Numbered from the stretch's first letter, positions 11,024-32,000 are shown. The stretch: 32,000 nucleotides of DNA from Halomicronema hongdechloris C2206 (GCF_002075285.3 NZ_CP021983.2:1350001-1382000); one strand, 5' to 3'. The notes: generated by a model not told the origin, from the letters alone. A program made the numbers and translations.

Positions 11024-11398
11024 TCATGCTTCAATCAAAGGCTCATGTTGAATACTCTTTTCCCCGAAATCTGTTTGCAGTAACCGTCGAATTAGAGTAA
11101 GTCGCTGGACGTCTTGTTGCGTTAACCAGGATTCAATTTCATAAAAGGCTTGTCCATTTTTATACTGGGTCCGTAGCGTCAGAATCGTTTCCGGCAGGTG
11201 GTGGTTATCTCCCTTGAATTCAATATTCAGATTTCGACCCCGCTCCACAATCATGTAGAACTGCTTACCCTCAAACACTCGCTGCCCAAGAGGTTGGTCT
11301 TGACAGAACCGTTCCAGGAGAAGCACAGCAGTTCCCGCAATCTGCTCTTGGGTCTTGCGGTCAACCGGGATAGGTTCTCTAGCTTTAGGTGATTTCAC
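11024..11398 (-). CDS. Hypothetical protein, third gene of the ParM-like operon
   Basis: 124-aa ORF. Its GTG start at 11396-11398 overlaps the stop of the upstream ORF (GTGA, 11395-11398), which suggests translational coupling. No family recognised. Confidence 0.45.
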   Translation of the reverse strand: MKSPKAREPIPVDRKTQEQIAGTAVLLLERFCQDQPLGQRVFEGKQFYMIVERGRNLNIEFKGDNHHLPETILTLRTQYKNGQAFYEIESWLTQQDVQRLTLIRRLLQTDFGEKSIQHEPLIEA

Positions 11399-11898: not shown

Positions 11899-11940
11899 GC
11901 TTCCAAGTCCTTGTCTTGGGTGAGCGGGTTGAGGCGATCT

Positions 11941-14028: not shown

Positions 14029-16710
14029 ATGCTGAGCCTGACGGTGATCAGCCCCAACCAGGGCGAAACCTACTACACCGCTGAAAACTACTACTCCAAT
14101 GAGGAGAACCAGGCCAACTCGACCTGGTCGGGTAAAGGGGCCAGATCGCTGGGGTTATCGGGCCAGGTGCAGGGCGAGGCCTTTAAGAACCTGCTCCACG
14201 GCAACAGTACTCAGGGCGACAAAACCCTGTCGGGGCGGAAGATCAATCCCGAAAAGCATCGGGCAGGCATTGACCTGACCTTCAGTGCGCCGAAAAGTCT
14301 CAGTCTGGCCGCGCTGGTCGGAGGCAACGAAGCCTTGGAGCAAGCTCATCGCACGGCGATGGCTCGAACGCTAGAAGTCATCGAGGAGCGGTATGCCCAG
14401 ACGCGAGTACGGACGGAGGAGGGAAGAAAAGCGATCGCTACCGGCAATCTCATCGTGGCCCAGTTTCACCACGACACCTCTCGGGAGAAAGACCCGCAGT
14501 TGCACACCCACTGTGTCGTCATCAATGCCACGCAACTGGCAGACGGACGCTGGCAGTCCCTGCACAATGACATTCTGTTCAAGCAGCAGAAACTGCTGGG
14601 GATGATTTACCAGAACGAACTGGCAGTCGAGGTGCAGCGGTTGGGCTATGCCATTGACCCTAGAGCTAATGGTCAGTTTGAACTACAGGGGTATCGACCG
14701 GCAGACCTGCAAACCTTTTCTAAACGGCGGGAGCAGATTTTGGCGACGGTGGGAGAGAATGCCACGGCCCAGGAGCGGGAGCTGGCCACCCTGATGACGC
14801 GAGCACCCAAGGGCAAGGAAATTCCCCGGGAGGAACTGCGAGCTTACTGGCAGGCGCAAGCCGAGGTTTTGCATCTGGAGCATCCCCAGCCTCGGGTCCT
14901 GGACTGGCAAAGTGATCTGAAAAAGGCGGTGCAGGCAGGGCTGAATCATTGCTCCGAGCGGGAGGCGGTGTTCCGGCGAGAGCAGGTGGAGCGCTTTGCC
15001 CTGGAGAATCATCTGGGGCAGCAATTCTTTGAGGACTTGCAGCAGACCCTCGATACCGATCCGGAGGTAATTCACACCGATGATCAGCGGTTGACGACGC
15101 AGACGGCGGTGCTGAGAGAGCTAGAAACGATTCGGACGGTACTGGAGGGCCGAGGGCAGGTGGGGGCAATTGCCAGCGAAGGTTGGGTGGCAGCGACTTT
15201 GGCAGATCAGGGGTTAACGCAAGGTCAGTATGAGGGGATTTTGCTGGCGGCGACGACTCGCGATCGCGTTATTGCCTGGCAGGGGGTGGCAGGAGCCGGG
15301 AAAAGTTTTGCCTTGAACCAGTTCCGCCGGATTGCGGAGGCTCAAGGGTACACCGTTCGAGGCTTTGCTCCCAGTGCGGAGGCGGCAAAGTCGTTGGGGG
15401 AGTCGGCCCAGATTCAGCAGACAGAGACGGTGGCAGCGTTGCTCTGTGCTCAGCCCCAGGAGACACCCTCTCAGTTTCCAGAGATCTGGGTGGTGGATGA
15501 GGCGGGACTTTTAAGCGCAAAAGATGCTCTGGCGCTGCTGACCCAGGCTCAGGAGCAGCAGGCGCGCGTGATTCTGGTGGGGGACACCCGGCAGTTGTCA
15601 GCAGTGGAAGCGGGGAATCCATTCAAGAGCTTGCAGCAGGCAGGGATGGTGACGGCTTACCTGCATCAGTCTTTGCGGCAGAAGAACCGGCAGATTAAGG
15701 CTGGGGTAGATCTGATTGCGGAAGGGAAGATTGCGGAAGGAATTCAGCAACTAAAGCCATACATTCATCAGGTGAGTAGTGAGGAGGCGAGGGCGCAGGA
15801 GATCGCCCATGACTATCTGACCCTGACGCCGGAGGAGCGACGGAAAACGCTTCTGCTGGCAGGGACAAACCGGGAGCGGTTGGCCATCACTCAAGCAATT
15901 CGAGCAGGACTAAAGTCGGAGGGGCAGTTAGGCCAGAATGTTCTGATGCAGCGGCTCAAGGCCAGGGATTTGACCTCGGTGCAGATGGCCTATGCTCACC
16001 ACTTTCAGGTCGGTGATGTGCTGATGCCCCAGGCCAGTTACAGGCGATGGGGGTTGGAGCGGGGACAGCGGTATGAGGTGCTTGCAGTGGATGTGCAGCA
16101 GAATGTGGTGACCCTGCGGGCTGAGAGGGGACCTGCTGTGCAGGTTGATCCAGCCAGGGTTGGGAAGAAGTCGGTGTACAGGATCGAGGAGATTGAGGTG
16201 GCGATCGGGGACCGTCTGAAATGGACGAAGAACCAGGCCACGCTGGGCCGCCGCAATGGGCAGGAGTTTGAGGTCTACGGCATTGAGGATGGGCAGGTTC
16301 TGATTCATTATGGCAGCGGAAAAACAGAAAGTCTGAGCTGTTCAGAGCTGGCCCATCTGGACTATGCCATGGTGAGCACGACCTACGGAGCTCAAGGCAA
16401 GTCAGCGGAGCGGGTGATTGGGGCGTTGGATCGGCATCTGGGGCGGGAGAACTTTTATGTGACGGTAAGTCGGGTGAAGCATGACCTGAGGCTTTACGCT
16501 TCCGAGGATTTGGACCGGCTGATTGCGCGGGCAGAGCAGTCCAGGGCGAAGGAGAATCCAGGGGAGGTGGTGAGAATTCAGCAGGATGGCGATCAGCAAC
16601 TAGCCTCTGTGCAGACCATAAGGCATCAGAATAGCGACCTAAGCTTCCGAAACTTGGATGAGGAGAAGCAAGGACCGCCGTTGAATAACAAGATTGAATT
16701 GGAACGCTGA
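14029..16710 (+). CDS. MOBF-family conjugative relaxase (TrwC/TraI-like) fused to an SF1 (RecD/TraA-like) helicase
   Basis: 893-aa ORF with ATG at 14029, preceded by AGGAGG at 14016-14021. The N-terminus has tyrosine pairs (GETYYTAENYY) and WSGKGARSLGLSG. The histidine triad is HHDTSREKDPQLHTHCVVINAT. Helicase motifs are GVAGAGKSF (Walker A), IWVVDEAGLLS, LVGDTRQLSAVEAGNPF, TTYGAQGKS and YVTVSRVKHDL. Confidence 0.9.
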   Translation: MLSLTVISPNQGETYYTAENYYSNEENQANSTWSGKGARSLGLSGQVQGEAFKNLLHGNSTQGDKTLSGRKINPEKHRAGIDLTFSAPKSLSLAALVGGNEALEQAHRTAMARTLEVIEERYAQTRVRTEEGRKAIATGNLIVAQFHHDTSREKDPQLHTHCVVINATQLADGRWQSLHNDILFKQQKLLGMIYQNELAVEVQRLGYAIDPRANGQFELQGYRPADLQTFSKRREQILATVGENATAQERELATLMTRAPKGKEIPREELRAYWQAQAEVLHLEHPQPRVLDWQSDLKKAVQAGLNHCSEREAVFRREQVERFALENHLGQQFFEDLQQTLDTDPEVIHTDDQRLTTQTAVLRELETIRTVLEGRGQVGAIASEGWVAATLADQGLTQGQYEGILLAATTRDRVIAWQGVAGAGKSFALNQFRRIAEAQGYTVRGFAPSAEAAKSLGESAQIQQTETVAALLCAQPQETPSQFPEIWVVDEAGLLSAKDALALLTQAQEQQARVILVGDTRQLSAVEAGNPFKSLQQAGMVTAYLHQSLRQKNRQIKAGVDLIAEGKIAEGIQQLKPYIHQVSSEEARAQEIAHDYLTLTPEERRKTLLLAGTNRERLAITQAIRAGLKSEGQLGQNVLMQRLKARDLTSVQMAYAHHFQVGDVLMPQASYRRWGLERGQRYEVLAVDVQQNVVTLRAERGPAVQVDPARVGKKSVYRIEEIEVAIGDRLKWTKNQATLGRRNGQEFEVYGIEDGQVLIHYGSGKTESLSCSELAHLDYAMVSTTYGAQGKSAERVIGALDRHLGRENFYVTVSRVKHDLRLYASEDLDRLIARAEQSRAKENPGEVVRIQQDGDQQLASVQTIRHQNSDLSFRNLDEEKQGPPLNNKIELER

Positions 16711-17009: not shown

Positions 17010-20000
17010 TTAGGGAATGATGCTCTGAAAGATTTCGTAGTTGTAGAACTTGCAGCGACTCTGGATAGTTGAGATCAAGCTGGGTACATACGTGAAAATA
17101 TTGTTCGAATCTGATTCTAATAAAAGTTTGCTGAGGTAGCCTATTTGATCAGGCTGAATGATTTCTTTCAATGAGGAAGCAAATTTCCAGACTTCATCAG
17201 AATTAGCTATCTTTAGAGCCTCAATTAATTCATCAAAACTATACTCATTAACCAACCTATCTATCATGATGCTGACGTTATCGCCAGTTGATTGTTCGGT
17301 AGAAAGATAATCGTGATAAATGTCATTTGAATCCCCACTGATCCTTTTAATCGCTAATCTTGCATTCTTCCGCACTTGGGAATCTTGACTACTTAACTCC
17401 GTTTTCAAAGCCGTCAGGCAGCCTCCTCCTAGCTCGCATAGTGCGCCGATAGCATCACGTGAGACTGACGAATCTTCAAATCCAATAGAGTTTCGACAAC
17501 CTAAAGCTTCAATCAAGACTGGAATACTATCAGTAGCTCCTTCCTTAGCAAGGATAAGAGCAGCGGATAATCGGATTTGAATTTTCGGATCATGAAGGGA
17601 ACGGACAAGAGCACCCCTTGATGCTTCAGTAGGTATCTTCCCCAAAGTTTCGATACAATCTTTTCGGATATCTTCGGTAGAAGACAAATCTTCTAGAATT
17701 TCAATAATAGACTGATCGAGATTCTCAACACCTAGTTTTCCTAGAGCCAAGAGAGTCTGTATATAAATTTGATTAAACTCAAACACGTTACCTGTCTCAT
17801 TAAGTTCTTTTTCAGCTCTTCTAAGATTCTCTTTAAGAAATGAAATAACGGTTGAATCGCCTATCTCACCAAGAGCCTTAATGGCAAAAGTTTTGACAGA
17901 TAAATTCTCATGTTCGTTTAGTAGAGCTTTGATCAATATTGGAATGGATTCTTTTTTGCGCTTTTGCAACAATATAGATATTGCCACTGAATGTTTAGAG
18001 CTATACTGGGTTGTTTTGGAGTCATCTTCAGTAAGAACTCTTTCAAGAACGTGCATAACCGTCAAGTCATCCACGATAATTAGGGCCGTACTAGCACTAT
18101 TGCGGACTAGGAAATCTGAGTCAAGAAATGCAACACTCAATAACGCTTCTGCTATGGTTTCAGAAATCGACTGAGTTTTTGTTACGATCTCTATCGCCCG
18201 TTTTTTGACTACAGAGTCATTACTCTTCAACGCGTTTATTAAATCATTTTCCAAAAAAACAAGCGCATCTTTCTGTAGTGAGTCACAAACAAAATTTCTA
18301 ACTTGCATGTCATCATCGAGCCAGGCTTTTGCAAGTATAGAAAGAGCTTCTTCATCACCCACATCTCTTAACGCGTGTGCAGCTGAACGTCGAGTAACGC
18401 TATCTTCGTCATGGAGTGCTATTTCTAGGAAAGGAAGAATATCTCCATACCCTTTGTTGAGTAGCAAATGAAGACTTGTTATTGCTTTACGTCTAGCTTC
18501 AAGATCTGCGTGTATGAGAGTCTCGCCTAACAGAGGTATTACCTTATCTCTATCTATGTTCTCAATGGCAAGAAGTGCTCTAAAGTGATGCTTTTCAACA
18601 CATAAAGCTTCTTGAAGTGCGGGAATAGCTGATTCATCTCCAAAACTGGCTACTTCACAAGCGGCTATCCAACGAATATCTTCGTCTGAATCTTCTAATG
18701 CCTTTTTTAGAGTATCTACAGAGCTGAGAGTATTTACTTTTCCTAAGGCTTTTATTGTTTCACTCTTTATAAAGGCTTCATCACTTTCTAGTAGTGGGCT
18801 CAAAAATGAAATAGCGGCAAAAGATTTTGTCTCTCCTAGAAGCTTGATTTTGAGTTTTAGAGGGACTGACAAATCATTGACCGAGTTTACTGCCGAAACC
18901 TGTAAGTTATGTTTTGCATTTCCAGCTAGCCTCGCTCCCAGCATTGAATCCACATCATTCATCGCCAGCTTCACTACCCGCAACGCCTGCGCTTCCTCAT
19001 CCACCAGTGCCAGCATCAGAGCAATGGGTTCAGTCCACTTCAACAGGTTGAGGTAGTCTCGCTTTAGTTCCTCATCGCTTAGGTCTGGCAATAGCCGCAG
19101 CAAATGTTCTGCCGCATAATATTCCTGGATTAGCTGGTGGCGAAACTCAATTTGGTCAGTACTGCGGTTTTGCAGCAGGTGGTACTTGAGCAGGTCATCC
19201 AAAATATCTCGAACTGGGAACTGCTCATTGGAGAAAATTCTGCTGAGTTCCTGCTCTGCCTCATCTCGGTGGATGGCTACACGAAAATCAACCGGGGTTT
19301 CTCCCTGCATCATGACTGCGGCAAGAGCTTGCAGGGCGGGTTTCCAGAGTCTGCGATCGCTCAGCGGTCTCACATCCCCTTTCAGCAGCGTCACCTCATG
19401 CTTTCGCACACTGCTGTCTTCATACATCCGGGTAAATGCCTGAAAAATCCCCGCCAGGTTAGAGGGCATTTGATGCTCAGGCGACTGCTGAAAGACCTCG
19501 CAGAGCATCCACAGCAGTAAAGGCGTTTGGCCGAACTCCCGCAAGCGATCGCTGAGTTGCCCCAGCATTGCCTCGGCCTGGTCTGACACGTAGGCGCGAA
19601 TAAACGCCTTCATTTGCTCTTCAGTCAGGGACTGCATTTCCAGTTTCTTCTCGATGCCCAGATCTCCCCCCAGGCCCAGCTCTCGGGTGGTGAAGATCAT
19701 GGGCACTTTGGAGTAGTCCTGCCGAAAGCTTGCCAGATGAGTTCTTGCCGTTTCGGATGGCAACTCATTTAACCCATCCACTAGGAGTAAAAAATGCCCC
19801 TGGCGCAGTAGCGATGTAAGAGTACTGTCATCCAGAGAAAGAGTGGGATCGTGTTTGTGGAGAAATGCCTGGATGCGATCGATGACTGAGGTTTGCCAGT
19901 AGCGCAGTTCTACCAAAATGGGAATTTGGCCTGAGCCCTGCTCCAATGCCTGAGTGGCCGTTTCCAGCAGTAGCCGAATCAACGCTGTCGATTTGCCAGA

Positions 20001-20543
20001 ACCGGGACGTCCGACTAGCAATACATGGTCATCGGCATATTTGCAAATGCCTTCCAGCACAGGTAAGCGCTCAGTTTTCTCCTGCTGCTCCTGAAGTGGG
20101 TTCGCTTCCGAAACAGCCGAATCCTTTTCTTTCGGAACAGTCTGGACCATCAAGCCAAAGTCAAAGGGGGATGGACTCTCTGACTCCGATTCCTGAATTT
20201 TGCCAGTGGCATCGGTCAGCGTGTAGTAACGCCACCACTCTTTGTAGGTATCAACCAGCGATCTCAAGTAGGACTGAAAGCCAATCTGCGCTGGCGTCTT
20301 CGAAGCTGCACTGTTCTGAATTGCCTCGACGATCGCCTGCACCGCTGCATCATTGATTTCGACGAAGGTGCGATCGCCAATCTGAATGTCTTTGCCTTCG
20401 CCGATGGTGATGTTGTACTTGCCCAATTGAAACAGCGATCGCCCTTCTTCCCCCTGTAGAGCCTGCTGCAATGCCATAATATCTGCCTTGGAGTATTCAC
20501 CTAAGGCAATGCGTTGAATGATGTCTTGCAGGCGATCGCTCAT
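17010..20543 (-). CDS. NACHT (STAND) NTPase with an N-terminal GKYN..IGEG..IGDR motif domain and a long C-terminal HEAT-repeat array
   Basis: 1177-aa ORF with ATG at 20541-20543. Walker A is GRPGSGKST (about 19986-20012) and Walker B is LLLVDGLNELP. It also has TPLLLWMLCEV and the winged-helix motif IEFRHQLIQEYYAAE. C-terminal HEAT/PBS-lyase-type repeats include DEDIRWIAACEVASFGDESAIPALQEAL, DSVTRRSAAHALRDVGDEEAL and DPKIQIRLSAALILAKEGATDSIPVLIEAL. Confidence 0.85.
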   Translation of the reverse strand: MSDRLQDIIQRIALGEYSKADIMALQQALQGEEGRSLFQLGKYNITIGEGKDIQIGDRTFVEINDAAVQAIVEAIQNSAASKTPAQIGFQSYLRSLVDTYKEWWRYYTLTDATGKIQESESESPSPFDFGLMVQTVPKEKDSAVSEANPLQEQQEKTERLPVLEGICKYADDHVLLVGRPGSGKSTALIRLLLETATQALEQGSGQIPILVELRYWQTSVIDRIQAFLHKHDPTLSLDDSTLTSLLRQGHFLLLVDGLNELPSETARTHLASFRQDYSKVPMIFTTRELGLGGDLGIEKKLEMQSLTEEQMKAFIRAYVSDQAEAMLGQLSDRLREFGQTPLLLWMLCEVFQQSPEHQMPSNLAGIFQAFTRMYEDSSVRKHEVTLLKGDVRPLSDRRLWKPALQALAAVMMQGETPVDFRVAIHRDEAEQELSRIFSNEQFPVRDILDDLLKYHLLQNRSTDQIEFRHQLIQEYYAAEHLLRLLPDLSDEELKRDYLNLLKWTEPIALMLALVDEEAQALRVVKLAMNDVDSMLGARLAGNAKHNLQVSAVNSVNDLSVPLKLKIKLLGETKSFAAISFLSPLLESDEAFIKSETIKALGKVNTLSSVDTLKKALEDSDEDIRWIAACEVASFGDESAIPALQEALCVEKHHFRALLAIENIDRDKVIPLLGETLIHADLEARRKAITSLHLLLNKGYGDILPFLEIALHDEDSVTRRSAAHALRDVGDEEALSILAKAWLDDDMQVRNFVCDSLQKDALVFLENDLINALKSNDSVVKKRAIEIVTKTQSISETIAEALLSVAFLDSDFLVRNSASTALIIVDDLTVMHVLERVLTEDDSKTTQYSSKHSVAISILLQKRKKESIPILIKALLNEHENLSVKTFAIKALGEIGDSTVISFLKENLRRAEKELNETGNVFEFNQIYIQTLLALGKLGVENLDQSIIEILEDLSSTEDIRKDCIETLGKIPTEASRGALVRSLHDPKIQIRLSAALILAKEGATDSIPVLIEALGCRNSIGFEDSSVSRDAIGALCELGGGCLTALKTELSSQDSQVRKNARLAIKRISGDSNDIYHDYLSTEQSTGDNVSIMIDRLVNEYSFDELIEALKIANSDEVWKFASSLKEIIQPDQIGYLSKLLLESDSNNIFTYVPSLISTIQSRCKFYNYEIFQSIIP
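20532..20539. repeat. HIP1 octamer GCGATCGC, one verified example of many copies
   Basis: Other copies verified by position are 20370-20377, 22979-22986 and 27737-27744. Many more are visible, for example near 1901, 2233, 19353, 19548, 23025, 23428, 27610, 27704 and 30302. HIP1 over-representation is a hallmark of many cyanobacterial genomes. Confidence 0.8.
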
Positions 20544-21677: not shown

Positions 21678-22706
21678 CTAGTCGATGTCTATGTGTTCGT
21701 AGTCAGGCAAACGCTCAATTAGATAAGCAATGTATCCCTGTAGCTGAACAACACTATGTGAAGGCAAGTTTTCTGGAAGCAGATTCAGCCCCAGATAGTT
21801 CAATGCAAATATATAGAGTTCATCTTCAATAACTACTGGTGTAACAGGGTTTTCTAAACTATTTTTACGTCCCCAAGTCAAGCAATGACCAAGGTTTTCT
21901 AGAAATTGGTCTAGCGTAAAGTAAAACGCATCTATTTTTTCTTGAGACGCACTATTCTGAATGTCAGAATAGTGCTCTAAAGTATATTTTCCCAAAGACC
22001 TAGCTAAACCATTAGCCCGCTTCCGATCTAGCCAGCGGGCTACGACTTTGCCATCTTCTAATTCCTCGCGGAGCTGTTGGAGTAGCTTGATTTGTTCTTG
22101 AAGACACGTTTGGGAACGAGCTTCCGCGAGACTATTTTCCTGGCTGCTTTCGAGAGCTTGCAATTTTGCCGTCAGATTGTCTACCCCAGCTTGGAGGAGG
22201 ATGTCGGCCTTAGCGGCAAGGGCAGACAATTCCTGCTGCACTTCCATGAGCTGCATGACCTTTCCTTTGACTTGATTGAAATCTGCTAGGTGTTGCTGGG
22301 GAAGGTGTCCTAATTTACGGAGTTCCTCTAGAGCCGCCAGACGAGTATTGAGATGATCTGCCAGTTGAGGTTCAAAAACAAGGGTAGGTAAAGGGGGATC
22401 CTCCAGGGGTGTTTCAGCTAGCTCAGTAGCGGAAGGAACACTCTGTACCAGCAAAGTTGCCTGAACAATCGCGCGAATATCGGCGGCAGTAGGGCCATAG
22501 TAGCGATGTCCCACCTGAACATCAGTCCCCTCGCCAATGACCGTATTGAATTTCCCATCCTGGGAAACAGATTGATTGACATTGGATGGGGGTAGTGGAG
22601 TTAACTGGCCATTTCTGGCTAGAGGCTTTTCAGTCGATTCAGATGTATCACCCTGTTTATCCAGCATCTTTGTTTCTAGCGAAAAAAGCTGATGTGTCCC
22701 GAGCAT
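21678..22706 (-). CDS. P-loop-less protein with an N-terminal GKFN..IGEG..VG motif, a coiled coil and an unknown C-terminal domain. Candidate adaptor or effector of the NACHT cluster.
   Basis: 342-aa ORF; the start may instead be Met14. The motif QDGKFNTVIGEGTDVQVGHRYYGPTAADIRAIVQ lies at nt 22503-22556. A heptad-like stretch covers about aa 120-220. The gene is divergently transcribed from the 874-aa NACHT gene, 94 nt away. Confidence 0.6.
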   Translation of the reverse strand: MLGTHQLFSLETKMLDKQGDTSESTEKPLARNGQLTPLPPSNVNQSVSQDGKFNTVIGEGTDVQVGHRYYGPTAADIRAIVQATLLVQSVPSATELAETPLEDPPLPTLVFEPQLADHLNTRLAALEELRKLGHLPQQHLADFNQVKGKVMQLMEVQQELSALAAKADILLQAGVDNLTAKLQALESSQENSLAEARSQTCLQEQIKLLQQLREELEDGKVVARWLDRKRANGLARSLGKYTLEHYSDIQNSASQEKIDAFYFTLDQFLENLGHCLTWGRKNSLENPVTPVVIEDELYIFALNYLGLNLLPENLPSHSVVQLQGYIAYLIERLPDYEHIDID

Positions 22707-22800: not shown

Positions 22801-25425
22801 ATGCCAATACCTGACGAGTTACTGCCGTTGATAGACCAAATCCTCAATCGCATTGAGCAAGATGGGGCAGCTTTGAAGAGTTGGCGGCAAACGGAAGATG
22901 GCCAGAAAATCATTCAGTATGTGGTGCAAATTGGTAAATACAACACCACTGTAGGCGAAGGAAAAGATATTTCAATTGGCGATCGCCTGGATCGAGCTTT
23001 GCTTGAGGAAGTGCGTAACTTGCTGCGATCGCAACTCTCGTCTCAAGTAGTAGAAATCAACTGGTCGCAAGTCAGCAGATTGCTTTTAGAACGCCAAGTT
23101 CAACGTCTGACCTCAAATCCTTTAACCCATGCCGAGGGGGTCACCTATCGCACTGAACAGGTGTATGTGCCACTGGGGTTGGTGGAGCGCAAGAAGGTGT
23201 CGCGTCACCGGGAGGATGTGCCCCCAGAGCAAGGCTCGTTGCTGTACAAGGAGACGGAGATTTCTCAGAAGTTTGAACAAGCAGTGTTTCTGGAGCAGGT
23301 GTTACGACAGGGGCAGAGCCCTCGGAGTGGGGGGCGACGGATTGTGATCATTGGGGAGCCAGGGGCGGGCAAGACGACGCTGTTGCAGCAGATGGCCTGG
23401 TGGGTGACGGAAAACATTGAAGGGGCGATCGCGATTTGGGTGTCGTTAGCGGGTTTGCAGGGGCGAGCTCTGGAGAATTATCTGCTAGAGCAGTGGTTAC
23501 CGGCAGTAGTGCAGCAGCAGGGACAGGCGGAAGCTTCGACACAAGTGAAGGATGCGCTAGTGGCGCAGTTTCGCGCGGGGCGGGTATGGCTGTGGCTTGA
23601 TGGGGTGGATGAGATGCCAGTAGCAGCGGGTAATCCGCTGAATGAGGTTGAGCGACAGGTGAGATTGGGAGGTTTGTTGGCGCAGGCGCGGATCGTGTTG
23701 ACCTGTCGGTTGAATCTGTGGGACGGAGAACGTCATGCGCTTGATACTTTCGACGTTTATCGGACGTTGGAGTTTACTTATCCGAAGCAGGTAGAGCAGG
23801 TCGTCGGGCAGTGGTTTGGGGCGTTGCCAGAAGCCCAGGTAGGGCAGGCAGAGCGGTTGTGTGAGGCATTACGGCAACCGGGAAAAGAGCGACTGCGAGA
23901 TTTAGTGAAGAATCCACTCCGGCTAACTTTGTTGTGTTTCAACTGGTATTTGGGAGAGGGAACGCTACCGGAAACGAAGGCTGGATTGTATGAGCAGTTT
24001 GTGGCGGATTTTTATGAGTGGAAGCGGGAGCGGTTTCCGACGACAGCGGAGCAACGAAGGCAGTTAAATGCGGCACTGGGTGAGTTGGCACGGGAGGCAA
24101 TCGATAAGGAGGAAACCCGGTTCCGACTGCGGCATGATTTTGTGTGCAAATTTTTGGGCGAACCGGATGAGCCTGATTCGTTGTTTCAGATGGCATTGCG
24201 GTTGGGATGGCTGAATCAAATCGGTGTGGATGCGGACAATCGGCGAAAGGCAGTGTATGCGTTTTTCCATCCCACGTTTCAGGAATATTTTGCAGCATCG
24301 ATTATAGTGAAGCAGTTTCAGGAAAATAGCATCACCTTTGAGCAATTGAAAACCGATATTCTTAGTAAATATTGGCAAGATGACTCATGGCATGAAGTTC
24401 TACTACTAGTTTGTGGATTGGTCAGCAACAAGATCTCCACTAAAATAATTGATTTTTTCATTGATCATTTTGAGTCGGGCAAGAATTTAATACGTCAAAA
24501 TGAGAACCAATCAATTTTCCAACAAGCCAGCCTTTTCGAACCCATAGAAGACTTTGAAAATAAAAATTTTGATAATGATTTTGAGAACGAGGATTTTAGT
24601 GTCCCTGAATATTTCAGTAGAAATTACAACTTTAATAGTAGTAGCCTTGCTTTTGCAATCTCCATTTCCCAAGAGATAAATAATGGCCACAATAGTAAGA
24701 TGACTCGTCAAAATTTAATTGCTCGCCTCGAAGATCATCTTGAATATCTTGAGGACTTTGTTGAAAGCCTTGGGAACTATACTTGGGATAACCTTACTGC
24801 AGACTATCTTAATCGTATATTTAGCGATATAGCTATTTTGGGACAAGGTTATAAAGAAGTTTTCAACTATCTTGCAAGTAAAGCCTGCGATGCTGAATTA
24901 CAAGAAATATGTTCAGCATCAATCAGAGCACTTGCAGAACATTGGAATAATGATGAAATGTTACTGGAATTATTAGTGAAAGCTGCTATTAAAAACCGTT
25001 TCGGCACATCAAAGTTTTCAATCAATGATCCAAATCTGGTGACTAGCCCTCGTAAGATAGCGCTAGAAGCTCTTTTTATTCGTTATCCAAATCATGCAAA
25101 AACCATACAAGCTTTAAAGGATCGCGCAATCAATGATCCAGACGAACCAGTTCGATGGTATGCAGCCCAAGCCTTGGGCCAATTAGCGAAAAGCACTCCT
25201 GAAATCATGGATTTTTTATTTTCAGTTGTTAAAAATTCTCGCTATGACAGCAAATATAATTACCGAGTTAGTCCACGCCATACAATTTTAGGCGCGATAG
25301 TTTTGCACTGTTCAAATCATTTCCAAGCTTTTGCTCTTTTATCAGATTTGGCACTTAATGATTCTAATGAAGAACTACGTCTATGGGTGAAAGAACAACT
25401 TAAAAACTGGGAATCACCAGTGTGA
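22801..25425 (+). CDS. NACHT (STAND) NTPase with an N-terminal GKYN..IGEG..IGDR motif and a C-terminal helical/HEAT-like sensor region
   Basis: 874-aa ORF. Walker A is GEPGAGKTT (23353-23376) and Walker B is WLWLDGVDEMP. It also has NPLRLTLLCF and FFHPTFQEYFAA (about 24265-24300). C-terminal HEAT-like units are DPDEPVRWYAAQALGQLAKS and NDSNEELRLWVKEQL. Confidence 0.85.
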   Translation: MPIPDELLPLIDQILNRIEQDGAALKSWRQTEDGQKIIQYVVQIGKYNTTVGEGKDISIGDRLDRALLEEVRNLLRSQLSSQVVEINWSQVSRLLLERQVQRLTSNPLTHAEGVTYRTEQVYVPLGLVERKKVSRHREDVPPEQGSLLYKETEISQKFEQAVFLEQVLRQGQSPRSGGRRIVIIGEPGAGKTTLLQQMAWWVTENIEGAIAIWVSLAGLQGRALENYLLEQWLPAVVQQQGQAEASTQVKDALVAQFRAGRVWLWLDGVDEMPVAAGNPLNEVERQVRLGGLLAQARIVLTCRLNLWDGERHALDTFDVYRTLEFTYPKQVEQVVGQWFGALPEAQVGQAERLCEALRQPGKERLRDLVKNPLRLTLLCFNWYLGEGTLPETKAGLYEQFVADFYEWKRERFPTTAEQRRQLNAALGELAREAIDKEETRFRLRHDFVCKFLGEPDEPDSLFQMALRLGWLNQIGVDADNRRKAVYAFFHPTFQEYFAASIIVKQFQENSITFEQLKTDILSKYWQDDSWHEVLLLVCGLVSNKISTKIIDFFIDHFESGKNLIRQNENQSIFQQASLFEPIEDFENKNFDNDFENEDFSVPEYFSRNYNFNSSSLAFAISISQEINNGHNSKMTRQNLIARLEDHLEYLEDFVESLGNYTWDNLTADYLNRIFSDIAILGQGYKEVFNYLASKACDAELQEICSASIRALAEHWNNDEMLLELLVKAAIKNRFGTSKFSINDPNLVTSPRKIALEALFIRYPNHAKTIQALKDRAINDPDEPVRWYAAQALGQLAKSTPEIMDFLFSVVKNSRYDSKYNYRVSPRHTILGAIVLHCSNHFQAFALLSDLALNDSNEELRLWVKEQLKNWESPV

Positions 25426-25489: not shown

Positions 25490-27922
25490 CTAATTATTGT
25501 CAGTTTTTTTGTGGCTTCGTTTTTCAATTTCGGCGATTGGCAACAGTAATGTATCTACAATCTCTCGCTGGACTCCATAATTTACTGAAGCATTCCTATT
25601 TAGACAATCCATTAACAGCTTATTAGCTTCATAGTAATTCTGAAGTATTTGTTTTTGTTTCCAATTCGCTTGCCAGTTACTGCCTAGATCCCGATGATTA
25701 TCTAAAATCAAATGAATCTGCCGTGACCAATCATCATGATTGGCTGCCCACCAGTCATCTAGATATCCCCATCGTGAGTGTTGCTCATAAGCAGGTGAGT
25801 CTTTAGATAGATAATATTCAGATGGAGGCAATAAGCTCAGAATAACATTATTTATGTACTGGTTGGTTTCTACGTCTAAAGGGTATGTACTATAAAGGCA
25901 CAGGGGTGCAGATCTCTCAAATTCTGCTTCATCGTCGGGTCGCCAATTTCGATTCGGTAAATCAGCTTTTTGAAGATGAATATTAATTTTTTTGTCCTCA
26001 AATTTATTGATAAAGAGAAAAACTGCAAAATCGTAAGTTGAACTATTGGGACGAGAGAAAAAGCCATACAGTAAGTCATATAATGAACGATATTCAGAGT
26101 TGAGATTTTGGTCGATTTTGGCAAATAGATGATTGACAGGATCATTTTCAAGGTTTTGAACAAAAGCCAGGAAAATAGCTCTCAAGGCAGCTAATTTATA
26201 ATTTTCCTTTGTAGCCTTTGCTTTATGAGATATCCATGATAGAAACGAGTTTATTTCAAGCTCATTAGCAACTAATTTATCTATATAATTTTTCATTGAG
26301 GCTAACAAATTGTTTGCGTCAGACAGTAGCTCGATCGTAAGAAGAAACACCTCTTGCCAGTGCTTGTTAATGCACTGAATGCTCATATTTTCAAAGTCTT
26401 TTGTTGCACAAAACCATTGCGCTACTAAATATTCTTGAAAAGTTAGATGTGAAAATGTCCAAACCTTCTGGCTTCTCTCAAGCAATAACCCATGCTGAGC
26501 TTCGATTGCCCGCAATACCCCCCGACTCTCCCGCAACCCAATTCCCAAAAACTCCGCAATATACTCCTCAATCTCCGCTTGCTCAAACAACACATACTGC
26601 TCCTGCTCAAACTTCTTCACGGCCAGATAGCTTAATAGCCCCAGCTTCCGCTCCACCGACAAATCGCGATAAATCTCATCCCGCTCAATCTCCCGCGACT
26701 TATCCCACTGCTCCAGCAGTAACTCCAATCCTTCTTCGTAGAGTTTCGACCTCTTCGAATAAAACTTTCCCGACTGGTGAAACACTGCACAAGTCAAACT
26801 CAGCAAAATTGGAGTAATTGCCAATTCCCGAATCGACTTGTTCTCCTCCCGAAACAATTGTTCCAAAAATGCTGTTGTCTTAGCCTGACCTGCGGTGAGA
26901 TCCCCACAAACCGTCTGAAACCAATGCTCGGCAAACGCTCTTACCTGCGGCTCATTAAAATCCGCCACTTCTACGTAATCAAACCGCTCAAACCGCGACT
27001 CCTGGCTCTGCGTCCGGCATGTCACAATTATCTGCACCTGCGGATAAGCTCGCGCAAACCGCTTGATTTGCTTAGCGATTGCCTGCCCATCTGCCCCCGT
27101 CACCTCATCCAGCCCATCCAGCAGCACCAGGGATCGGCCTTCACCCAGCACCAGCCGCACAGCCTGATCCGACAACTGCCAGCATCGTTCCAAATACCGC
27201 TCTATTGAGTAACCAACTTCACGCCCATCCTCCACAAACTCCCGCAGCCGAATTAACACCGGAATTCGGTGCGTCTGCAAATTGCCCGCATTACACTCCG
27301 TCACTACCCGCTGCAAATACGTCGTCTTTCCCGAACCCGGCTTGCCCACCACCATCAGGTTGGTATCCCTGTCCAGCACCTTCAGTCCCGACACCCGTTG
27401 CCGTTCCTTACCCAAGCCCATGCGATCCAAACCGCGATAGCTGGGATTCTGGCTGAAGTCTTGCCACAGATCTACTAACTCCGATCGCCGATTGCTACTC
27501 ACCTCCTCCAGAATATTCACATCCACAAACAACTCGCCCAGTGGCACCCAACGATCCACCCCCCATAGCGGCATCGTGCCGTACAAGCGCTGAATGTCAT
27601 TGTGGATGCGCGATCGCACCTGCTGCACGAGCTCGTCTACTGACGTAACTTCTGCTGAATGAGACGGTTCTGACTTGTTTATCTCTTCTCGAATGGCTTG
27701 AGCGATCGCCTGGATATTCTCCTCCGTCAATTCGAGGCGATCGCCAATATGTATCTGCCCCAGGGCTTGCTGGATATTGACTGCGTACTTACCGACTTGC
27801 AGCACTGAAGGGGAGCAATCGCCTTCACCAAAAAAATCTCGCAGCGTTTGTAGATCAGCTTCAGTATGGTCGCCTTTAGCAATGCGCTCCAGGATAATTG
27901 GCAAATCCTCAAACTGAGCCAT
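25490..27922 (-). CDS. NACHT (STAND) NTPase with the N-terminal GKY...IGDR motif and a C-terminal all-helical domain of the type common in cyanobacterial NACHT proteins
   Basis: 810-aa ORF with ATG at 27920-27922. Walker A is GKPGSGKTT (27323-27346) and Walker B is LVLLDGLDEV. It also has TPILLSLTCAVF and FSHLTFQEYLVA (about 26429-26450). The C-terminal end QNYYEANKLLMDCLNRNASVNYGVQREIVDTLLLPIAEI matches a recurrent cyanobacterial NACHT C-terminal helical module, from memory. Confidence 0.85.
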   Translation of the reverse strand: MAQFEDLPIILERIAKGDHTEADLQTLRDFFGEGDCSPSVLQVGKYAVNIQQALGQIHIGDRLELTEENIQAIAQAIREEINKSEPSHSAEVTSVDELVQQVRSRIHNDIQRLYGTMPLWGVDRWVPLGELFVDVNILEEVSSNRRSELVDLWQDFSQNPSYRGLDRMGLGKERQRVSGLKVLDRDTNLMVVGKPGSGKTTYLQRVVTECNAGNLQTHRIPVLIRLREFVEDGREVGYSIERYLERCWQLSDQAVRLVLGEGRSLVLLDGLDEVTGADGQAIAKQIKRFARAYPQVQIIVTCRTQSQESRFERFDYVEVADFNEPQVRAFAEHWFQTVCGDLTAGQAKTTAFLEQLFREENKSIRELAITPILLSLTCAVFHQSGKFYSKRSKLYEEGLELLLEQWDKSREIERDEIYRDLSVERKLGLLSYLAVKKFEQEQYVLFEQAEIEEYIAEFLGIGLRESRGVLRAIEAQHGLLLERSQKVWTFSHLTFQEYLVAQWFCATKDFENMSIQCINKHWQEVFLLTIELLSDANNLLASMKNYIDKLVANELEINSFLSWISHKAKATKENYKLAALRAIFLAFVQNLENDPVNHLFAKIDQNLNSEYRSLYDLLYGFFSRPNSSTYDFAVFLFINKFEDKKINIHLQKADLPNRNWRPDDEAEFERSAPLCLYSTYPLDVETNQYINNVILSLLPPSEYYLSKDSPAYEQHSRWGYLDDWWAANHDDWSRQIHLILDNHRDLGSNWQANWKQKQILQNYYEANKLLMDCLNRNASVNYGVQREIVDTLLLPIAEIEKRSHKKTDNN

Positions 27923-28119
27923 ACGTGACGAATCCCGTCAACTTTGAAATACAACAGCGAAAGCTGCCTGAATCATAGCCTTTTGCCCGCTTTGCCGTGA
28001 CTCCGATGGTTTGTGAAGTGGCGCATTGCTTATTGGACAGAGTGCGATCGTGACATTCCATTTTAGAGCAACTATGAAGTTCGGAAAACACAGCGGACCT
28101 ACTCAGGTACAGTGCTGAG

Positions 28120-30417
28120 CTACTTTAGGGGCATGGTGGCAAAATGCTCTTGCACGAGCTTATGAATAAATCGATAGCGCCCGCCAACGCGCTGCAATAA
28201 GAGACGCTCTGTGCAGTGGTTGAGGAAGCGAGCGTAGTTCCAAGGACCATTTTCACTTCTGAAGAGCAACAACCTAAGCACGAAATGCTGAATAAGAGGC
28301 CATCCAATTGATGCAAAACTCATTAAAAATCCACAAATTGCTCCAAAAAAAACTATTTTCGGAACCTCTCTGGCAATAATATTCGAGTCTGGGCTGAGGA
28401 AAACAAATCCAAAAACAAATAGCCCAAGTAAAGCATTAAATAAAAAACATGAGGCTAGAAGTAGTTTCAGATTTTGACGAATTCCATGATTGGGATAAAT
28501 CTTGAATTCTATGGGCTTCCTTAGGCCTTTAAATACTCCAAACATAATCCCAAAAACCATCCATAATGCTGCCATCACAAAGATCCAAACAAAAAACATA
28601 CTGAATAAATCAAATAATTGTGTTCCTACGATTGATCCTCCATCGTGCTGAGGTGATTTAATGACAAAAAGTCGAGGTGAGTAAAGCCATGCAAATAAGG
28701 CAGTTACTAAGCTCACAAGACCAAAGCCGGCACCTGATAATGAGCCCAAGAGCACCCATTTTTTTAGCAGCCTTGGTTTGATTTCTCGAATAGAAAAGGC
28801 TTCAGTAAACTCAATGCTAGTTTGACTATTCTTGAATCCCAAGTAAAAACCTGCCATAGATGCTAACAAAGCCCCCCCCAAAGCCGCACGAATGAAGGTG
28901 AAATGCATAAGCTCAGCCAATGTTACCGAAATTCTTGCATTGGAAGAAGAAGAGACTCCCCAGAGAATGGTTGAGGTTTCAGGAGAAATCGAAGTTAACA
29001 AGCCAAAAAGTAGCAAGGATAAGAAATAGTGAATCGAACCAGTAAATACACTAAACAGAATGGAAGTTGTCAATATATATTTTCTGTGCTGGTTTGGTTT
29101 TAAAGTGCTTGCCTGTACTTCTTCAATTGAAAAATCATCAATAAAAGACTTGCCAAGCATTTGTGCAAGCCATACAAGCTGTAATCGAATTGTCTTAGCT
29201 GTAGGATGGCTACCTATTAAATAGTCCTTACTATTTATGACTTCATGAAGTCGTCGTTCCACATAAGCGTCCAGCAAGTACTCCATCCTGGCTTGGGTGG
29301 TTTGCTTTTGCTGCCAACGTTCTGGCTCTATACCATCATTGGCAAGTAAGGCCACACTCAACAGTAGTGGCGTGCGTACCAAAGCGAGGAGTTCTGCATC
29401 CTGGCACAGGGTTTCCCACAAGTCCTGACGGCTTAATGAGGTCAGGTAGCTTTGCAATTGCTCATCGGTCAGAGGTTCCAGGCAAATGGCTCCATTGAGT
29501 TCCAGTTTGGTATCGTACAGGTCGTATTCTTCCATGCGGCTGCACACCAGCATCCCCGTTGGCCCCTCCCCAGATCGCAACCATTCGTTGATTGCTTGCA
29601 CCACAGATTCTTGTCGCTCAGGGGGCAGTTCATCTAGACCATCGAGTAAGGGCAGCAACGTTTTCTGCGTTAGCCAGGATTTCCCCAGCTTGGGCGACAC
29701 CCCGTACTTCAGCCTGAGTTCGTTCACCAGCCAGTCTGTCAAGCTCTGCTTCGCACTTTGCCAGGACGACAGGTTTACCATCACCGGAATCGGCTGTTCT
29801 GGGTCATCATTCGCCCGCTGAATCAGCACCGCCGCCAGATCCAGCATGGTGGTGGTTTTGCCAGCGCCGGGGTTACCCAGAATCAGCAACCTGCCTCCCA
29901 CCTCCCGCCGATCAAACACCTCAGCAACGTGAGTCCCTGGGGGTAGTTGCTTGGGCTTCCGGTCAGCAGTACGAATCTGGCTATCCCAGGGACGGCTCAC
30001 CTGGGTGCGGTCTTCGGCCATATCGAGCCGCACCAGAATGGCATTGTGTAGCGACTGTCGCAAGCGATCTTCTACCTCTGTCCATACGGCAGCAATCAGC
30101 GTTTTTTCGTTGCCGTCCTTACGGGTGGGTTGCGGCTGCGTTTCTGGCAATCCATAAAAGTAGGCGCTTGAGGCTGCCAGCACCTCCTGCAATACCAGTT
30201 TTAAGGTTTCTGCATCCATCCCCTGATGAATCACCACCCGGTTGTTATCACCCAAGATGTTGTCACTTCCCGTGACAATCTTTGCGCCAGTTGCATCGCG
30301 GGCGATCGCCACCGCTCCCTGACCAGACGCACTGACCTCCGCCAGTAGCGCCTGAAGGTTTTCCTGAGGGAGCTCCTTCAGTGCCGCTTTCAGGTTTTCC
30401 AGGCTATCTGACATCAA
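28120..30417 (-). CDS. NACHT (STAND) NTPase with an N-terminal Gly/Asn-rich motif and a roughly 6-helix transmembrane block inserted before the terminal winged-helix motif
   Basis: The ORF track starts at TTG 30415-30417; ATG at 30412-30414 is the more likely start, 8 nt after the caspase stop. Walker A is GNPGAGKTT (29854-29877) and Walker B is LLPLLDGLDELP, followed by RTPLLLSVALL. Hydrophobic segments span aa ~447-718 (nt 28264-29079). The final 36 aa contain the canonical GGRYRFIHKLVQEHFA motif. Confidence 0.8.
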   Translation of the reverse strand: MMSDSLENLKAALKELPQENLQALLAEVSASGQGAVAIARDATGAKIVTGSDNILGDNNRVVIHQGMDAETLKLVLQEVLAASSAYFYGLPETQPQPTRKDGNEKTLIAAVWTEVEDRLRQSLHNAILVRLDMAEDRTQVSRPWDSQIRTADRKPKQLPPGTHVAEVFDRREVGGRLLILGNPGAGKTTTMLDLAAVLIQRANDDPEQPIPVMVNLSSWQSAKQSLTDWLVNELRLKYGVSPKLGKSWLTQKTLLPLLDGLDELPPERQESVVQAINEWLRSGEGPTGMLVCSRMEEYDLYDTKLELNGAICLEPLTDEQLQSYLTSLSRQDLWETLCQDAELLALVRTPLLLSVALLANDGIEPERWQQKQTTQARMEYLLDAYVERRLHEVINSKDYLIGSHPTAKTIRLQLVWLAQMLGKSFIDDFSIEEVQASTLKPNQHRKYILTTSILFSVFTGSIHYFLSLLLFGLLTSISPETSTILWGVSSSSNARISVTLAELMHFTFIRAALGGALLASMAGFYLGFKNSQTSIEFTEAFSIREIKPRLLKKWVLLGSLSGAGFGLVSLVTALFAWLYSPRLFVIKSPQHDGGSIVGTQLFDLFSMFFVWIFVMAALWMVFGIMFGVFKGLRKPIEFKIYPNHGIRQNLKLLLASCFLFNALLGLFVFGFVFLSPDSNIIAREVPKIVFFGAICGFLMSFASIGWPLIQHFVLRLLLFRSENGPWNYARFLNHCTERLLLQRVGGRYRFIHKLVQEHFATMPLK

Positions 30418-30422
30418 ACCAC

Positions 30423-31469
30423 TTACTCCTTGTCAGCTTGATCAGCACCAAAAGTGTCACCAATGTGCAAACCCTGGATATTGTCTCCCATGCTGATGTT
30501 GTACTTACCTTTTTGATTCACAGTCTGCACTCGGTTATTGTTGCCAACGATGTTGCCCTGTCCAGTAACAATCGTTGCCCCCTGCGCGTTCTGAACCGCA
30601 ACTGCGCCATCTCCTGAAGCTGCGATCGTGGTTTGAATCATTTGGCCGTTCAATTCACCAGGCTGTGACTCAATCCGAGGCTTGGATGCTAACTCAGGCG
30701 GCAGGCCCTTCGGCTGCAGATCGCCTCCGGCATAGTACGCCAGCACAAAGTTATCGGCCTTCTCAATGTCCAGCACAGGGTGTTGTTTATCGCTGGTCAA
30801 TGTCGGCACAATGCGGCTGGCATACATCGCTAAATCCGTCGCCCGAATGTAGCCATCTTGCTGGGTGGCTCCTTCCCCACATAATCCCTTCATCAGGGCA
30901 TAGGTAAAGGCACTGTAGGGTTCTCCGGCATAGGACAACTCATCTGGCCGTGAGGAGCCAATCATGATGCGTCCGCCTCCTTTGGCAAACATCCTTTGCG
31001 CTTCCGGCGGCAGCGGAGCTTTGGTCGCTGCAAAGGCAGAGACATCACTTAATCCGCCAGCATGGCAGCAATCCAGCATCACCAGCAGTTTCTGCGCCGG
31101 AATCTCGCGCAGGTAATCCACAAACTCACTGCCGCTAATGGCGGTCTCATCCAAAGCTTCAGTGTTGTAGCCGTAGGGCATTAAAAAATAAGACTTAAAC
31201 GGCTTTTGCAGTTGGTGGCCATGTCCTGAGAAATAAATCAGCACCGTCGAATCGTCGTCGGTTGAATTCGCTAAGGTCTCCAAAGTTTGCAAAATCTGGC
31301 TGCGGGTTGCCTTTTCCCCCGTAAGGAAATGCACCTGGCTTTCTGGATAGGCACAGCGCTCGGGGTCTTGCAGAACCTTCGCCAGACCTTTAGCATCGGT
31401 GGCGGTAGTCGGCAAATCGCCACCGACTCCAATCACGCAAGCATGCCCTTGTTCAAAAAGGTGACTCAT
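30423..31469 (-). CDS. Caspase-like peptidase C14 (orthocaspase/metacaspase-like) with a C-terminal Gly/Asn-rich motif tail
   Basis: 348-aa ORF with ATG at 31467-31469. The His-Cys dyad context is LIYFSGHGHQ and VMLDCCHAGG. The C-terminal ~70 aa are non-protease: AASGDGAVAVQNAQGATIVTGQGNIVGNNNRVQTVNQKGKYNISMGDNIQGLHIGD. Confidence 0.85.
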   Translation of the reverse strand: MSHLFEQGHACVIGVGGDLPTTATDAKGLAKVLQDPERCAYPESQVHFLTGEKATRSQILQTLETLANSTDDDSTVLIYFSGHGHQLQKPFKSYFLMPYGYNTEALDETAISGSEFVDYLREIPAQKLLVMLDCCHAGGLSDVSAFAATKAPLPPEAQRMFAKGGGRIMIGSSRPDELSYAGEPYSAFTYALMKGLCGEGATQQDGYIRATDLAMYASRIVPTLTSDKQHPVLDIEKADNFVLAYYAGGDLQPKGLPPELASKPRIESQPGELNGQMIQTTIAASGDGAVAVQNAQGATIVTGQGNIVGNNNRVQTVNQKGKYNISMGDNIQGLHIGDTFGADQADKE

Positions 31470-31652
31470 TTCTGTTTGCCCTCAACTGGAAAATCCTTCG
31501 AGTCTTCCGCCATTATGACCTCGCCGCTAAGAAGGGTTAGCGTTTTTTAGCAATAAAATTTAGTCTTACGATGACTTAGCCATGTTTTTTTGCAGGCAGG
31601 AGTCGTGAGCTGTAGTCATAACAATTGAGATCGCCCTTCAACCCATCTCCCC

Positions 31653-32000
31653 ATGAAACTCCATCCCACTCCCTGGCTGAGCCTGACACTCTCCCTGCTG
31701 GGCTGCCTCCCGGCCCAACCCAGTTTGGCCCAAACAACTGTTATCGTTACCCCTGAAGCCCTGACGGCAACCGGAATGCGCGGGGAAGCTGAACCGGCAA
31801 TCCGAACTTTGGCGATTCGAGCAACTGAGCCCGTAACCGATTTGCAAATCCACACTCTGGATTTGTACAGTCGCGATCGCGATCGAGTTTTCCCCCAAGC
31901 CCTGATTACCGTTCCCACGACCATCAGCTCAGTTGAGGTAGGTACCCTGACCACTTTGCCAGTTGCGTTTAATCTGCAGGCTGCTCCCAGTGGTGAATTT
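31653..32000 (+). CDS. Secreted or lipoprotein-like hypothetical protein, 5' part; the ORF runs off the window
   Basis: ATG at 31653 opens a frame that stays open to the window end (116 codons). The N-terminus MKLHPTPWLSLTLSLLGCLPAQPSLAQ looks like a signal peptide with a possible lipobox (LLGC). It is absent from the ORF track, presumably because no stop lies within the window. Confidence 0.5.
   Translation, partial: MKLHPTPWLSLTLSLLGCLPAQPSLAQTTVIVTPEALTATGMRGEAEPAIRTLAIRATEPVTDLQIHTLDLYSRDRDRVFPQALITVPTTISSVEVGTLTTLPVAFNLQAAPSGEF

Follow-up and report, generated by a model that had tools for sequence, protein, structure and literature searches.

A caspase-like protease of Halomicronema hongdechloris with two tandem C-terminal motifs that match the N termini of neighboring NACHT sensors

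A 32,000-nucleotide (nt) stretch of DNA from Halomicronema hongdechloris C2206 (NZ_CP021983.2:1350001-1382000; hereafter the window, with positions counted from its first letter) encodes a caspase-like protease amid a cluster of NLR-like NACHT sensors, and the C-terminal tail of the protease carries two short motifs in tandem, A and B, that recur in the N-terminal regions of those sensors. The protease is an orthocaspase (Peptidase C14) of 348 amino acids (aa) encoded at 30423-31469 on the minus strand, and it matches Pfam PF00656 at E=5e-19. It has the caspase-hemoglobinase fold and an intact His-Cys dyad, with His83 (SGHGH, nt 31215-31229) and Cys135 (DCCHAGG, nt 31053-31073) invariant across 32 homologues. 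AlphaFold2 (AF2) modeled the domain confidently, with many blocks above a predicted local distance difference test (pLDDT) value of 90, and a Foldseek search with this model returned MALT1 paracaspase and metacaspases (E~1e-9), GSU0716, and caspase-9. The tail (aa 276-348) was modeled at pLDDT 35-47 without secondary structure and is predicted to be intrinsically disordered. Its composition is strongly biased, with G/N/Q/V/I making up 62% of residues versus 23% in the domain and P/L/K making up 5% versus 22%. Enrichment of the former residues and depletion of the latter have been reported for BASS motifs (10.1101/2020.01.06.895854), and the caspase tail shows this same bias.

Directly downstream lies the gene for a 765-aa sensor, NACHT-TM (28120-30417, minus strand; residues numbered from its TTG start), in which Pfam identifies an EAD10 module of what we call the A type (aa 5-79, 44.4 bits) and a NACHT NTPase domain (aa 177-325) with the Walker A sequence GNPGAGKT at nt 29854-29877. 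Its C-terminal region is multi-pass hydrophobic, with a number of strongly hydrophobic stretches from aa 452 to 709. On the same strand, 8 nt lie between the stop codon of the caspase gene (TAA, 30423-30425) and the NACHT-TM ATG (30412-30414), a distance that the original prediction had also given. Because of this short gap and a Shine-Dalgarno-like AAGGAG inside the last caspase codons, upstream of the NACHT-TM start, we suggest that the two genes form an operon with translational coupling.

The original prediction had also held that the caspase tail and the NACHT-TM N terminus share a motif, and a statistical pairwise alignment bears this out, at motif coordinates that proved correct within a few bases. 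Tail motif A is a BASS6-like segment, AASGDGAVAVQNAQGATIVTGQGNIVGNNNRVQTV (aa 283-317; 30519-30623, minus strand), that aligns to NACHT-TM aa 29-64, SASGQGAVAIARDATGAKIVTGSDNILGDNNRVVIH (30226-30333, minus strand). In the sensor the motif has predicted helices on both flanks: it starts at aa 29 behind two of them, and a conserved helix follows. Our count from both sequences finds identity in 21 of 36 aligned columns, at the positions originally listed. Composition-adjusted BLASTP gave E=3e-12 with 26/53 identities, and Smith-Waterman alignment scored 107, compared with 27±5 for shuffled sequences (z=16, 0/2000 shuffles as high). When the motif residues alone were shuffled, which preserves their G/N/V composition, 0/5000 shuffles reached the score of the pair, and so a chance likeness between low-complexity segments is rejected as the explanation for it. 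A wider search with the 79-aa tail against 1.84 billion representative proteins gave 22 matches, several of which are large Ig-like/SprB-like repeat proteins that we judged, on reading, to be noise.

Five residues past the ...NNRV end of motif A, as originally described, the tail continues with motif B, QKGKYNISMGDNIQGLHIGD (aa 319-338; 30456-30515, minus strand), which is the GKYN...IGD core of EAD10. This motif matches the N termini of three further NACHT sensors in the window, each at z≈5 and with at most 1/2000 shuffles as high. NACHT810 (25490-27922, minus strand; motif B at nt 27740-27799) has a B-type EAD10 module (73.9 bits), NACHT, and NCH2; the 874-aa NACHT-HEAT sensor (22801-25425, plus strand; motif B at nt 22927-22983) has a B-type module (67.4 bits), NACHT, and HEAT; and the 1177-aa NACHT-HEAT sensor (17010-20543, minus strand; motif B, with IQIG, at nt 20373-20429) has a B-type module (76.3 bits), NACHT, and HEAT_2. 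A weaker match (z=3.2) was obtained to a 342-aa protein (21678-22706, minus strand) with a B-like EAD10 core at nt 22506-22562; EAD10 (aa 44-83, 34.1 bits) is the only Pfam family found in this protein, and its C-terminal part is without a match. For broader comparisons, hidden Markov models (HMMs) of the two motifs, motA and motB, were trained iteratively on caspase tails, replacing a first regular expression for motif A that was too strict (4 matches). Matches of these models to caspase tails are circular, such as the 34 bits of the window tail against motB, whose training set included it, and we therefore count as evidence the matches to neighboring proteins alone, such as the 15.4 bits of the 1177-aa sensor against motB.

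All five of these neighbors exceed the Pfam EAD10 (PF19954) cutoff of 24.1 bits, NACHT-TM included, despite its central motif being unlike that of the other four. The NTPases among them (NACHT-TM, NACHT810, and the 874-aa and 1177-aa sensors) thus carry the domain above its gathering score, while the caspase lacks the full second copy expected on an adjacent effector and holds both cores alone, without flanking helices. A-type and B-type sensor N termini share one layout, an N-terminal helix, a beta motif, and a helix. Comparison of their profiles with hhalign (16 A-type and 18 B-type N termini) joined them at a probability of 96.5% and E=9e-10, superposing ATGxRAVAIGG...VIVTGD of A on QxGKYNVNIGQ...IHIGD of B, which argues that A and B are two diverged subtypes of one module rather than unrelated motifs.

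Motif A also belongs, by its sequence, to BASS6, a predicted bacterial amyloid signaling motif. The dataset README of Dyrka et al. (PMC8086366) equates the internal cluster C09 with BASS6, and members of this cluster include VIASGERAVAIGGNASGNTISTGD (Nostoc), VIASGNRSVAIGGNVSGSTIITGDQNQK (Chloroflexus), and FTASGQGAVAVQHNSGIISTGSD (Streptomyces). We built a BASS6 HMM from 42 actinobacterial and proteobacterial members, with no cyanobacterial sequence, and ran it on 3648 open reading frames (ORFs) taken from the window together with 80 related loci; the top ~22 were motif A instances in caspase tails and in the termini of neighbors, and the window caspase scored 17.7 bits and NACHT-TM 11.7 bits. 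Since this independent model ranks motif A at the top, the analogy to amyloid signaling rests on sequence membership beside gene layout. In common with described BASS/NLR pairs, the locus has a motif shared between an effector C terminus and a STAND N terminus, adjacent collinear genes, a BASS6 profile match, and the composition bias; a Bell effector and a sensor motif at the extreme N terminus without a flanking domain are absent. Motif B is clearly different from BASS9, and the BASS7 and BASS8 examples examined are also unlike it. A small BASS3 HMM placed motif B instances on top at no more than 11.6 bits over HMM positions 1-20. Motif B resembles the first two-thirds of RHIM-like BASS3 (GKYxVxxxxxxGVQIGD), but the BASS3 pattern of a G-(V/I)-Q-(V/I)-G-D core followed by N-x-Q-x-N-x-F is not present, as the C-terminal N-x-Q-x-N-x-F half is missing. 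A kinship of motif B to BASS3 may be taken as a lead only.

The caspase family comprises 559 proteins at E<=1e-5, and the tails of its 120 best cluster representatives fall into four types: A then B (67), A alone (19), B alone (18), and other motifs (16). To relate tails to sensors, we scanned ±10 kb around the caspase at 80 genome loci coding for caspase homologues (labeled L below), counting a neighboring ORF as tagged when motA or motB matched its first 130 residues at 10 bits or more. Caspases with A alone (L005, L019) had 6 A-tagged and 0 B-tagged neighbors, and those with B alone (L012, L021, L022, L023, L028, L036) had 0 A-tagged and 14 B-tagged neighbors. Around caspases with both motifs, A-tagged neighbors occur at L001, L006, L007, and L014, B-tagged neighbors at L004, L011, and L013, and both at the window (1 A-tagged, 4 B-tagged) and at L083 (2 A-tagged, 2 B-tagged). 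L083 is a syntenic metagenome contig with a caspase 90% identical to that of the window, and its genes run caspase (A+B), NACHT-TM orthologue (A, after an 8-nt gap), NACHT810 orthologue (B), NB-ARC-TPR (A), and NACHT-HEAT-TIR (B). Tagged neighbors are mostly STAND NTPases: the 17 A-tagged proteins include 8 NACHT and 3 NB-ARC proteins (EAD10 match in 11/17), and the 22 B-tagged proteins include 8 NACHT and 6 NB-ARC proteins (EAD10 match in 20/22).

The arrangement with a motif at the effector C terminus, a motif at the NLR N terminus, and adjacent genes is conserved in orthologous loci as well. An A-tagged gene lies directly downstream of the caspase in the window and at L001, L083/L084, L007, and L014 (gaps of 8-11 nt) and at L005 (62 nt), and these downstream A tags retain the GxNN(R)V extension seen in the caspase. 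At L013 the downstream B-type partner and the caspase have the same unusual GKYSTY variant. Together with the shuffles, these loci dispose of the concern that the likeness might reflect G/N/V composition not conserved in orthologous pairs, and the earlier idea of a hub effector gains support from modular tails that match neighboring tags and from the two loci, the window and L083, with both sensor classes. No match to window positions 28000-31600 was found by megablast among PLSDB plasmids.

The tails themselves are more varied than the two motifs alone would indicate. In the 67 A+B tails the order is always A then B, with spacing quantized at 6/8, 12-13, or 18 residues, and the caspase of L004 (9986-11755) has a (GSGNVV)x4 expansion between the motifs that hints, at the sequence level, at a hexapeptide-periodic beta-solenoid. 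A third motif, DLRESQGAIVNPGAG.TVTQQFGNT, follows A(+B) in the tails of P0014, P0017, P0018, P0073, and L015; it is similar to VDMRGAQGAVYKPAGPVEQQFG, a motif found in caspases of Chloroflexi and Methanothrix. Caspase homologues of the latter groups (L020-L080) have arrays of other G/V/Q-rich motifs, e.g., FDQRGQTVHGPQTNIAG, VHGPVLSGTFQGPV, VDMRGAQGAVYKPAGPVEQQFG, and GGDFVGRDK, single members of which match the termini of different neighboring proteins, and at L065, L077, and L080 such a tail fuses the caspase to an NB-ARC-like NTPase. Some caspase tails run on into TIR or other domains, and at L003 the caspase is fused to a B-type EAD10 protein. A+B tails also occur outside this caspase family, for instance in P0133 (a divergent caspase-like fragment) and Roseiflexus A7NJM5 (from the BASS6 dataset), and P0142 has A+B ahead of a domain read as CHAT-like. 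The short and probably fragmentary P0152 and P0154 begin with an A-type EAD10 module and have a B-type module directly after it, so bivalency also exists outside caspase tails.

Comparison with close relatives indicates that tags behave as swappable modules between sensor bodies. The closest genome locus, L001 of Leptolyngbya sp. CCNP1308 (~87% DNA identity), aligns at 9465-11343 with window positions 30130-32000 (86.5% DNA identity) and at 11344-12650 with window positions 26409-27715 (81%). The L001 sensor downstream of the caspase (11059-13617) is consequently a chimera of NACHT-TM aa 1-95, including the A-type EAD10, and the NACHT810 body, with the junction ...YFYGLPETQPQ|IQAIAQAIREEINK falling exactly at the end of the B-type EAD10 that NACHT810 itself carries. 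So clean a junction suggests that the tag was swapped recently, through recombination. Another NACHT810-like body (69% identity) is A-tagged at L019, and NACHT-TM homologues carry an A tag at L006 and L014 and a B tag at L011 and L026.

We think it fairly probable that the caspase is the shared executioner of this NLR-like (STAND/NACHT) sensor cluster, with a bivalent tail through which oligomerized sensors would activate it by matching motifs. Each sensor bears one subtype, A or B, within an N-terminal helix-motif-helix module. Once triggered, a sensor would oligomerize and gather its N-terminal motifs, which could then order themselves into a beta structure, be it an amyloid-like beta-solenoid or some other homotypic beta assembly. 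This structure would recruit or template the matching motif in the caspase tail, and the caspase domains clustered in this way may be activated by proximity, with proteolysis killing or arresting the cell. We infer physical interaction, templating, and proximity activation from the sequences and gene arrangements described above. Because the tail has both subtypes, one protease could answer the A-tagged NACHT-TM and the B-tagged proteins (three NACHT sensors and the 342-aa protein), and the cluster thus probably has one death protease common to two sensor classes.

Several observations count against this reading or narrow it. The caspase tail scores 15.9 bits against Pfam EAD10, below the 24.1-bit cutoff, and aligns to profile positions 36-61 alone. 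For motif A of the window caspase, its own sensor ranks 1st of 18, yet across loci cognate pairs are just slightly more alike than non-cognate pairs of the same subtype (Mann-Whitney p=0.03 for A and 0.045 for B); with so marginal an effect, specificity seems to reside chiefly in the subtype, and given the weak signal we make no claim of finer pair specificity. The related loci are phylogenetically non-independent, and the comparison covers ±10 kb per caspase. The fixed order and quantized spacing of A and B might mean that they act as one unit, and the position of the sensor motif between conserved helices, away from the extreme N terminus, is equally compatible with a folded adaptor and an amyloid. 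AF2 modeled the A-type EAD10 module with low confidence (mean pLDDT 55.7; helices at residues 3-13, 17-30, and 68-84 and strands at 35-40, 43-48, and 61-63), and this model settles nothing between the two. The alignment behind it was shallow: the NACHT-TM N terminus as query gave 4 matches and a profile of 16 A-type N termini gave 13, which is enough for such an alignment and too few for a census of architectures. In the literature examined, BASS1, BASS3, and BASS11 are the motifs tested experimentally, and BASS6 and EAD10 are not among them.

One alternative is that A and B are two rungs of a single composite fold, comparable to the r1/r2 pseudorepeats of HET-s, so that any sensor tag would nucleate the same structure. 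The homology of the two motifs, a weak alignment of the motA HMM to the first half of B, their invariant order at spacings of 6/8, 12-13, or 18 residues, and the periodic beta-solenoid suggested by the (GSGNVV)x4 expansion of L004 would all suit such a fold, as would the presence of both motifs in 67/120 homologues and the double or triple repeats of one motif known on BASS1 and BASS6 effectors. However, caspases with A alone (19/120) or B alone (18/120) are common and have type-matched sensors alone, some tails carry a third and different motif (P0014, P0017, P0018, P0073), and in the Chloroflexi and Methanothrix arrays each motif has its match in a different neighbor; we consider a single fold quite unlikely. 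A separate alternative keeps the wiring logic unchanged and concerns its physical basis: the sensor EAD10 could be a small folded alpha+beta domain that attaches to the caspase tail in a fixed stoichiometry, for instance through beta-strand addition, with no templating, much as Death-fold adaptors recruit caspases. Kaur et al. 2020 (PMC7159879) present EAD10 as a homotypic adaptor of mixed alpha+beta structure, both types of sensor have Pfam EAD10 matches and conserved flanking helices, and AF2 puts helices on either side of a beta hairpin, albeit in the low-confidence model. The caspase side, however, is without helices and predicted to be disordered, its motif A falls within BASS6, a family defined as amyloid signaling motifs, and its composition bias is of the kind usual in beta-arch or amyloid motifs. 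A purely stoichiometric adaptor seems unlikely to us, though either an amyloid-like contact, as in the BASS model, or a conventional homotypic adaptor contact, as in the EAD model, may underlie the assembly.

That the tail has no signaling role at all, being a low-complexity G/N/V linker or the remnant of a split caspase-NLR fusion gene, is very improbable and largely refuted by sequence comparison. The biased composition of the tail, the unrelated repeat proteins met in the 1.84-billion-protein search, and the fused caspase-NTPase forms at L003, L065, L077, and L080 could be read in its favor, but no composition-preserving shuffle attains the observed score, conservation of the motif extends across phyla and effector types, the tag type of the caspase agrees with that of neighboring sensors, and tag exchange respects the module boundaries precisely. 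The shared executioner with a bivalent tail can also be placed within a wider proposal, plausible but somewhat short of probable, in which the tails of this caspase family would be a combinatorial address code. Its letters would be tandem, mutually diverged beta-arch motifs (types A and B, a third of the form DLRxxQGA...QQFG, and further ones in Chloroflexi and Methanothrix), each with its counterpart in the N-terminal tag of a different sensor class. With tags exchanged among sensor bodies through recombination, a single protease would integrate many sensors, and EAD10 and BASS would be the same device.

Judging from the neighboring genes, the NLR/caspase cluster sits in a mobile defense island. 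The window begins with a TmtA/sacsin-like fragment (32-748), a UvrD/GajB-like helicase (766-2793), a GmrSD-like nuclease (2805-5369), and a DruE-like helicase of 1847 aa (5366-10909), followed by a ParM-like protein (11941-13074) and a TrwC relaxase (14029-16710). PADLOC matched the caspase, one HEAT model, and, marginally, Avs2 for the 1177-aa sensor; its sensor models (Avs, bNACHT) gave no match for NACHT-TM, NACHT810, or the 874-aa sensor. At the other end of the window, a divergently oriented gene on the plus strand (~31650-32000, continuing past the window end) encodes a signal-peptide-like N terminus (MKLHPTPWLSLTLSLLGCLPAQP...), and in L081 and L083 the same gene is located upstream of the caspase too. 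L081 is a metagenome contig with a caspase 87% identical to that of the window, and it has a 440-aa B-tagged protein in place of the A-tagged sensor; around this locus are Tn3/IS transposase genes and an integrase gene, in keeping with a frequently rearranged island. EAD10-tagged, NTPase-free proteins of 320-440 aa are encoded in the window (21678-22706, minus strand), L081 (11077-12399), and L013 (2070-3059), and further such proteins in L004 (11850-13019) and L014 (11059-12021). Their C-terminal parts are without a Pfam match, and their genes often lie directly downstream of the caspase; they may act as sensors, adaptors, or second effectors.

The coupling principle that we propose for this locus is already published, and the two-tag tail is the new twist. 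EAD coupling as described by Kaur et al. 2020 (PMC7159879) includes effector-NTPase pairing, caspase effectors, many proteins per EAD, and multiple EADs per protein, and because both types of sensor N terminus here are EAD10 modules, that principle already covers this architecture. BASS/NLR pairs with non-Bell effectors, caspase/CHAT ones included, have also been reported (Dyrka et al. 2020, 10.1101/2020.01.06.895854). In the literature searched, we found no report of a caspase that bears two motif subtypes as a heterotypic tandem within an island holding both sensor classes, no statement in either EAD or BASS work that the EAD10 core is equivalent to a BASS6-type motif, and no account of tags moving precisely from one sensor body to another among near relatives. 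A truly bivalent tail would offer a sequence-readable rule for which sensors feed which executioner in bacterial NLR networks, as well as a natural system for asking whether short amyloid-type motifs keep two channels apart on one protein. EAD10, an adaptor domain, and BASS6, an amyloid motif, are linked here as two accounts of one element with different predicted biophysics, and the tag exchange between the window and L001 suggests how mobile defense islands may re-plug sensor repertoires onto effectors.

Among known systems, those built on EAD10 (PF19954; PMC7159879; PMC8195603) are similar in having one copy on the core NTPase and another on an adjacent enzymatic effector, often a caspase, and in having many proteins with the same EAD in one genome. 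Adjacent copies are most alike in those systems; the window caspase motif ranks its own sensor first, but across loci this tendency is weak. Unlike them, the effector here bears cores of ~20-35 residues alone, without helices and below the Pfam threshold, and it combines the A and B subtypes in tandem, with A coinciding with BASS6. The BASS6/NLR pairs (10.1101/2020.01.06.895854; PMC8086366) share with this locus a short motif on the effector C terminus and on the N terminus of the adjacent STAND NTPase, the sequence family of motif A, the composition bias, and multicellular or filamentous hosts. They differ in that our effector is a C14 caspase instead of a Bell domain, that its tail bears two different motifs in tandem instead of one repeated, and that the sensor motif, in contrast also to HET-s pairs, is embedded between the helices of EAD10 and not at the extreme N terminus.

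The proposed logic, in which an oligomerizing sensor would nucleate a fold that is templated onto a disordered effector tail, resembles that of HET-s/NWD2 and of RHIM signaling (RIPK1/RIPK3), and motif B has a RHIM-like (I/L)-x-I-G-D core, including IQIG in the 1177-aa NACHT-HEAT sensor; the effector here, however, is a protease and not a pore-former or kinase. Recruitment through CARD in inflammasomes and apoptosomes likewise joins an NLR-type NTPase to a caspase-fold protease by a matched adaptor, and for our locus induced proximity may be inferred. The adaptor differs, being a short beta motif in a disordered tail instead of a six-helix Death-fold domain, and, unlike in CARD recruitment, a single protease carries two adaptor specificities.

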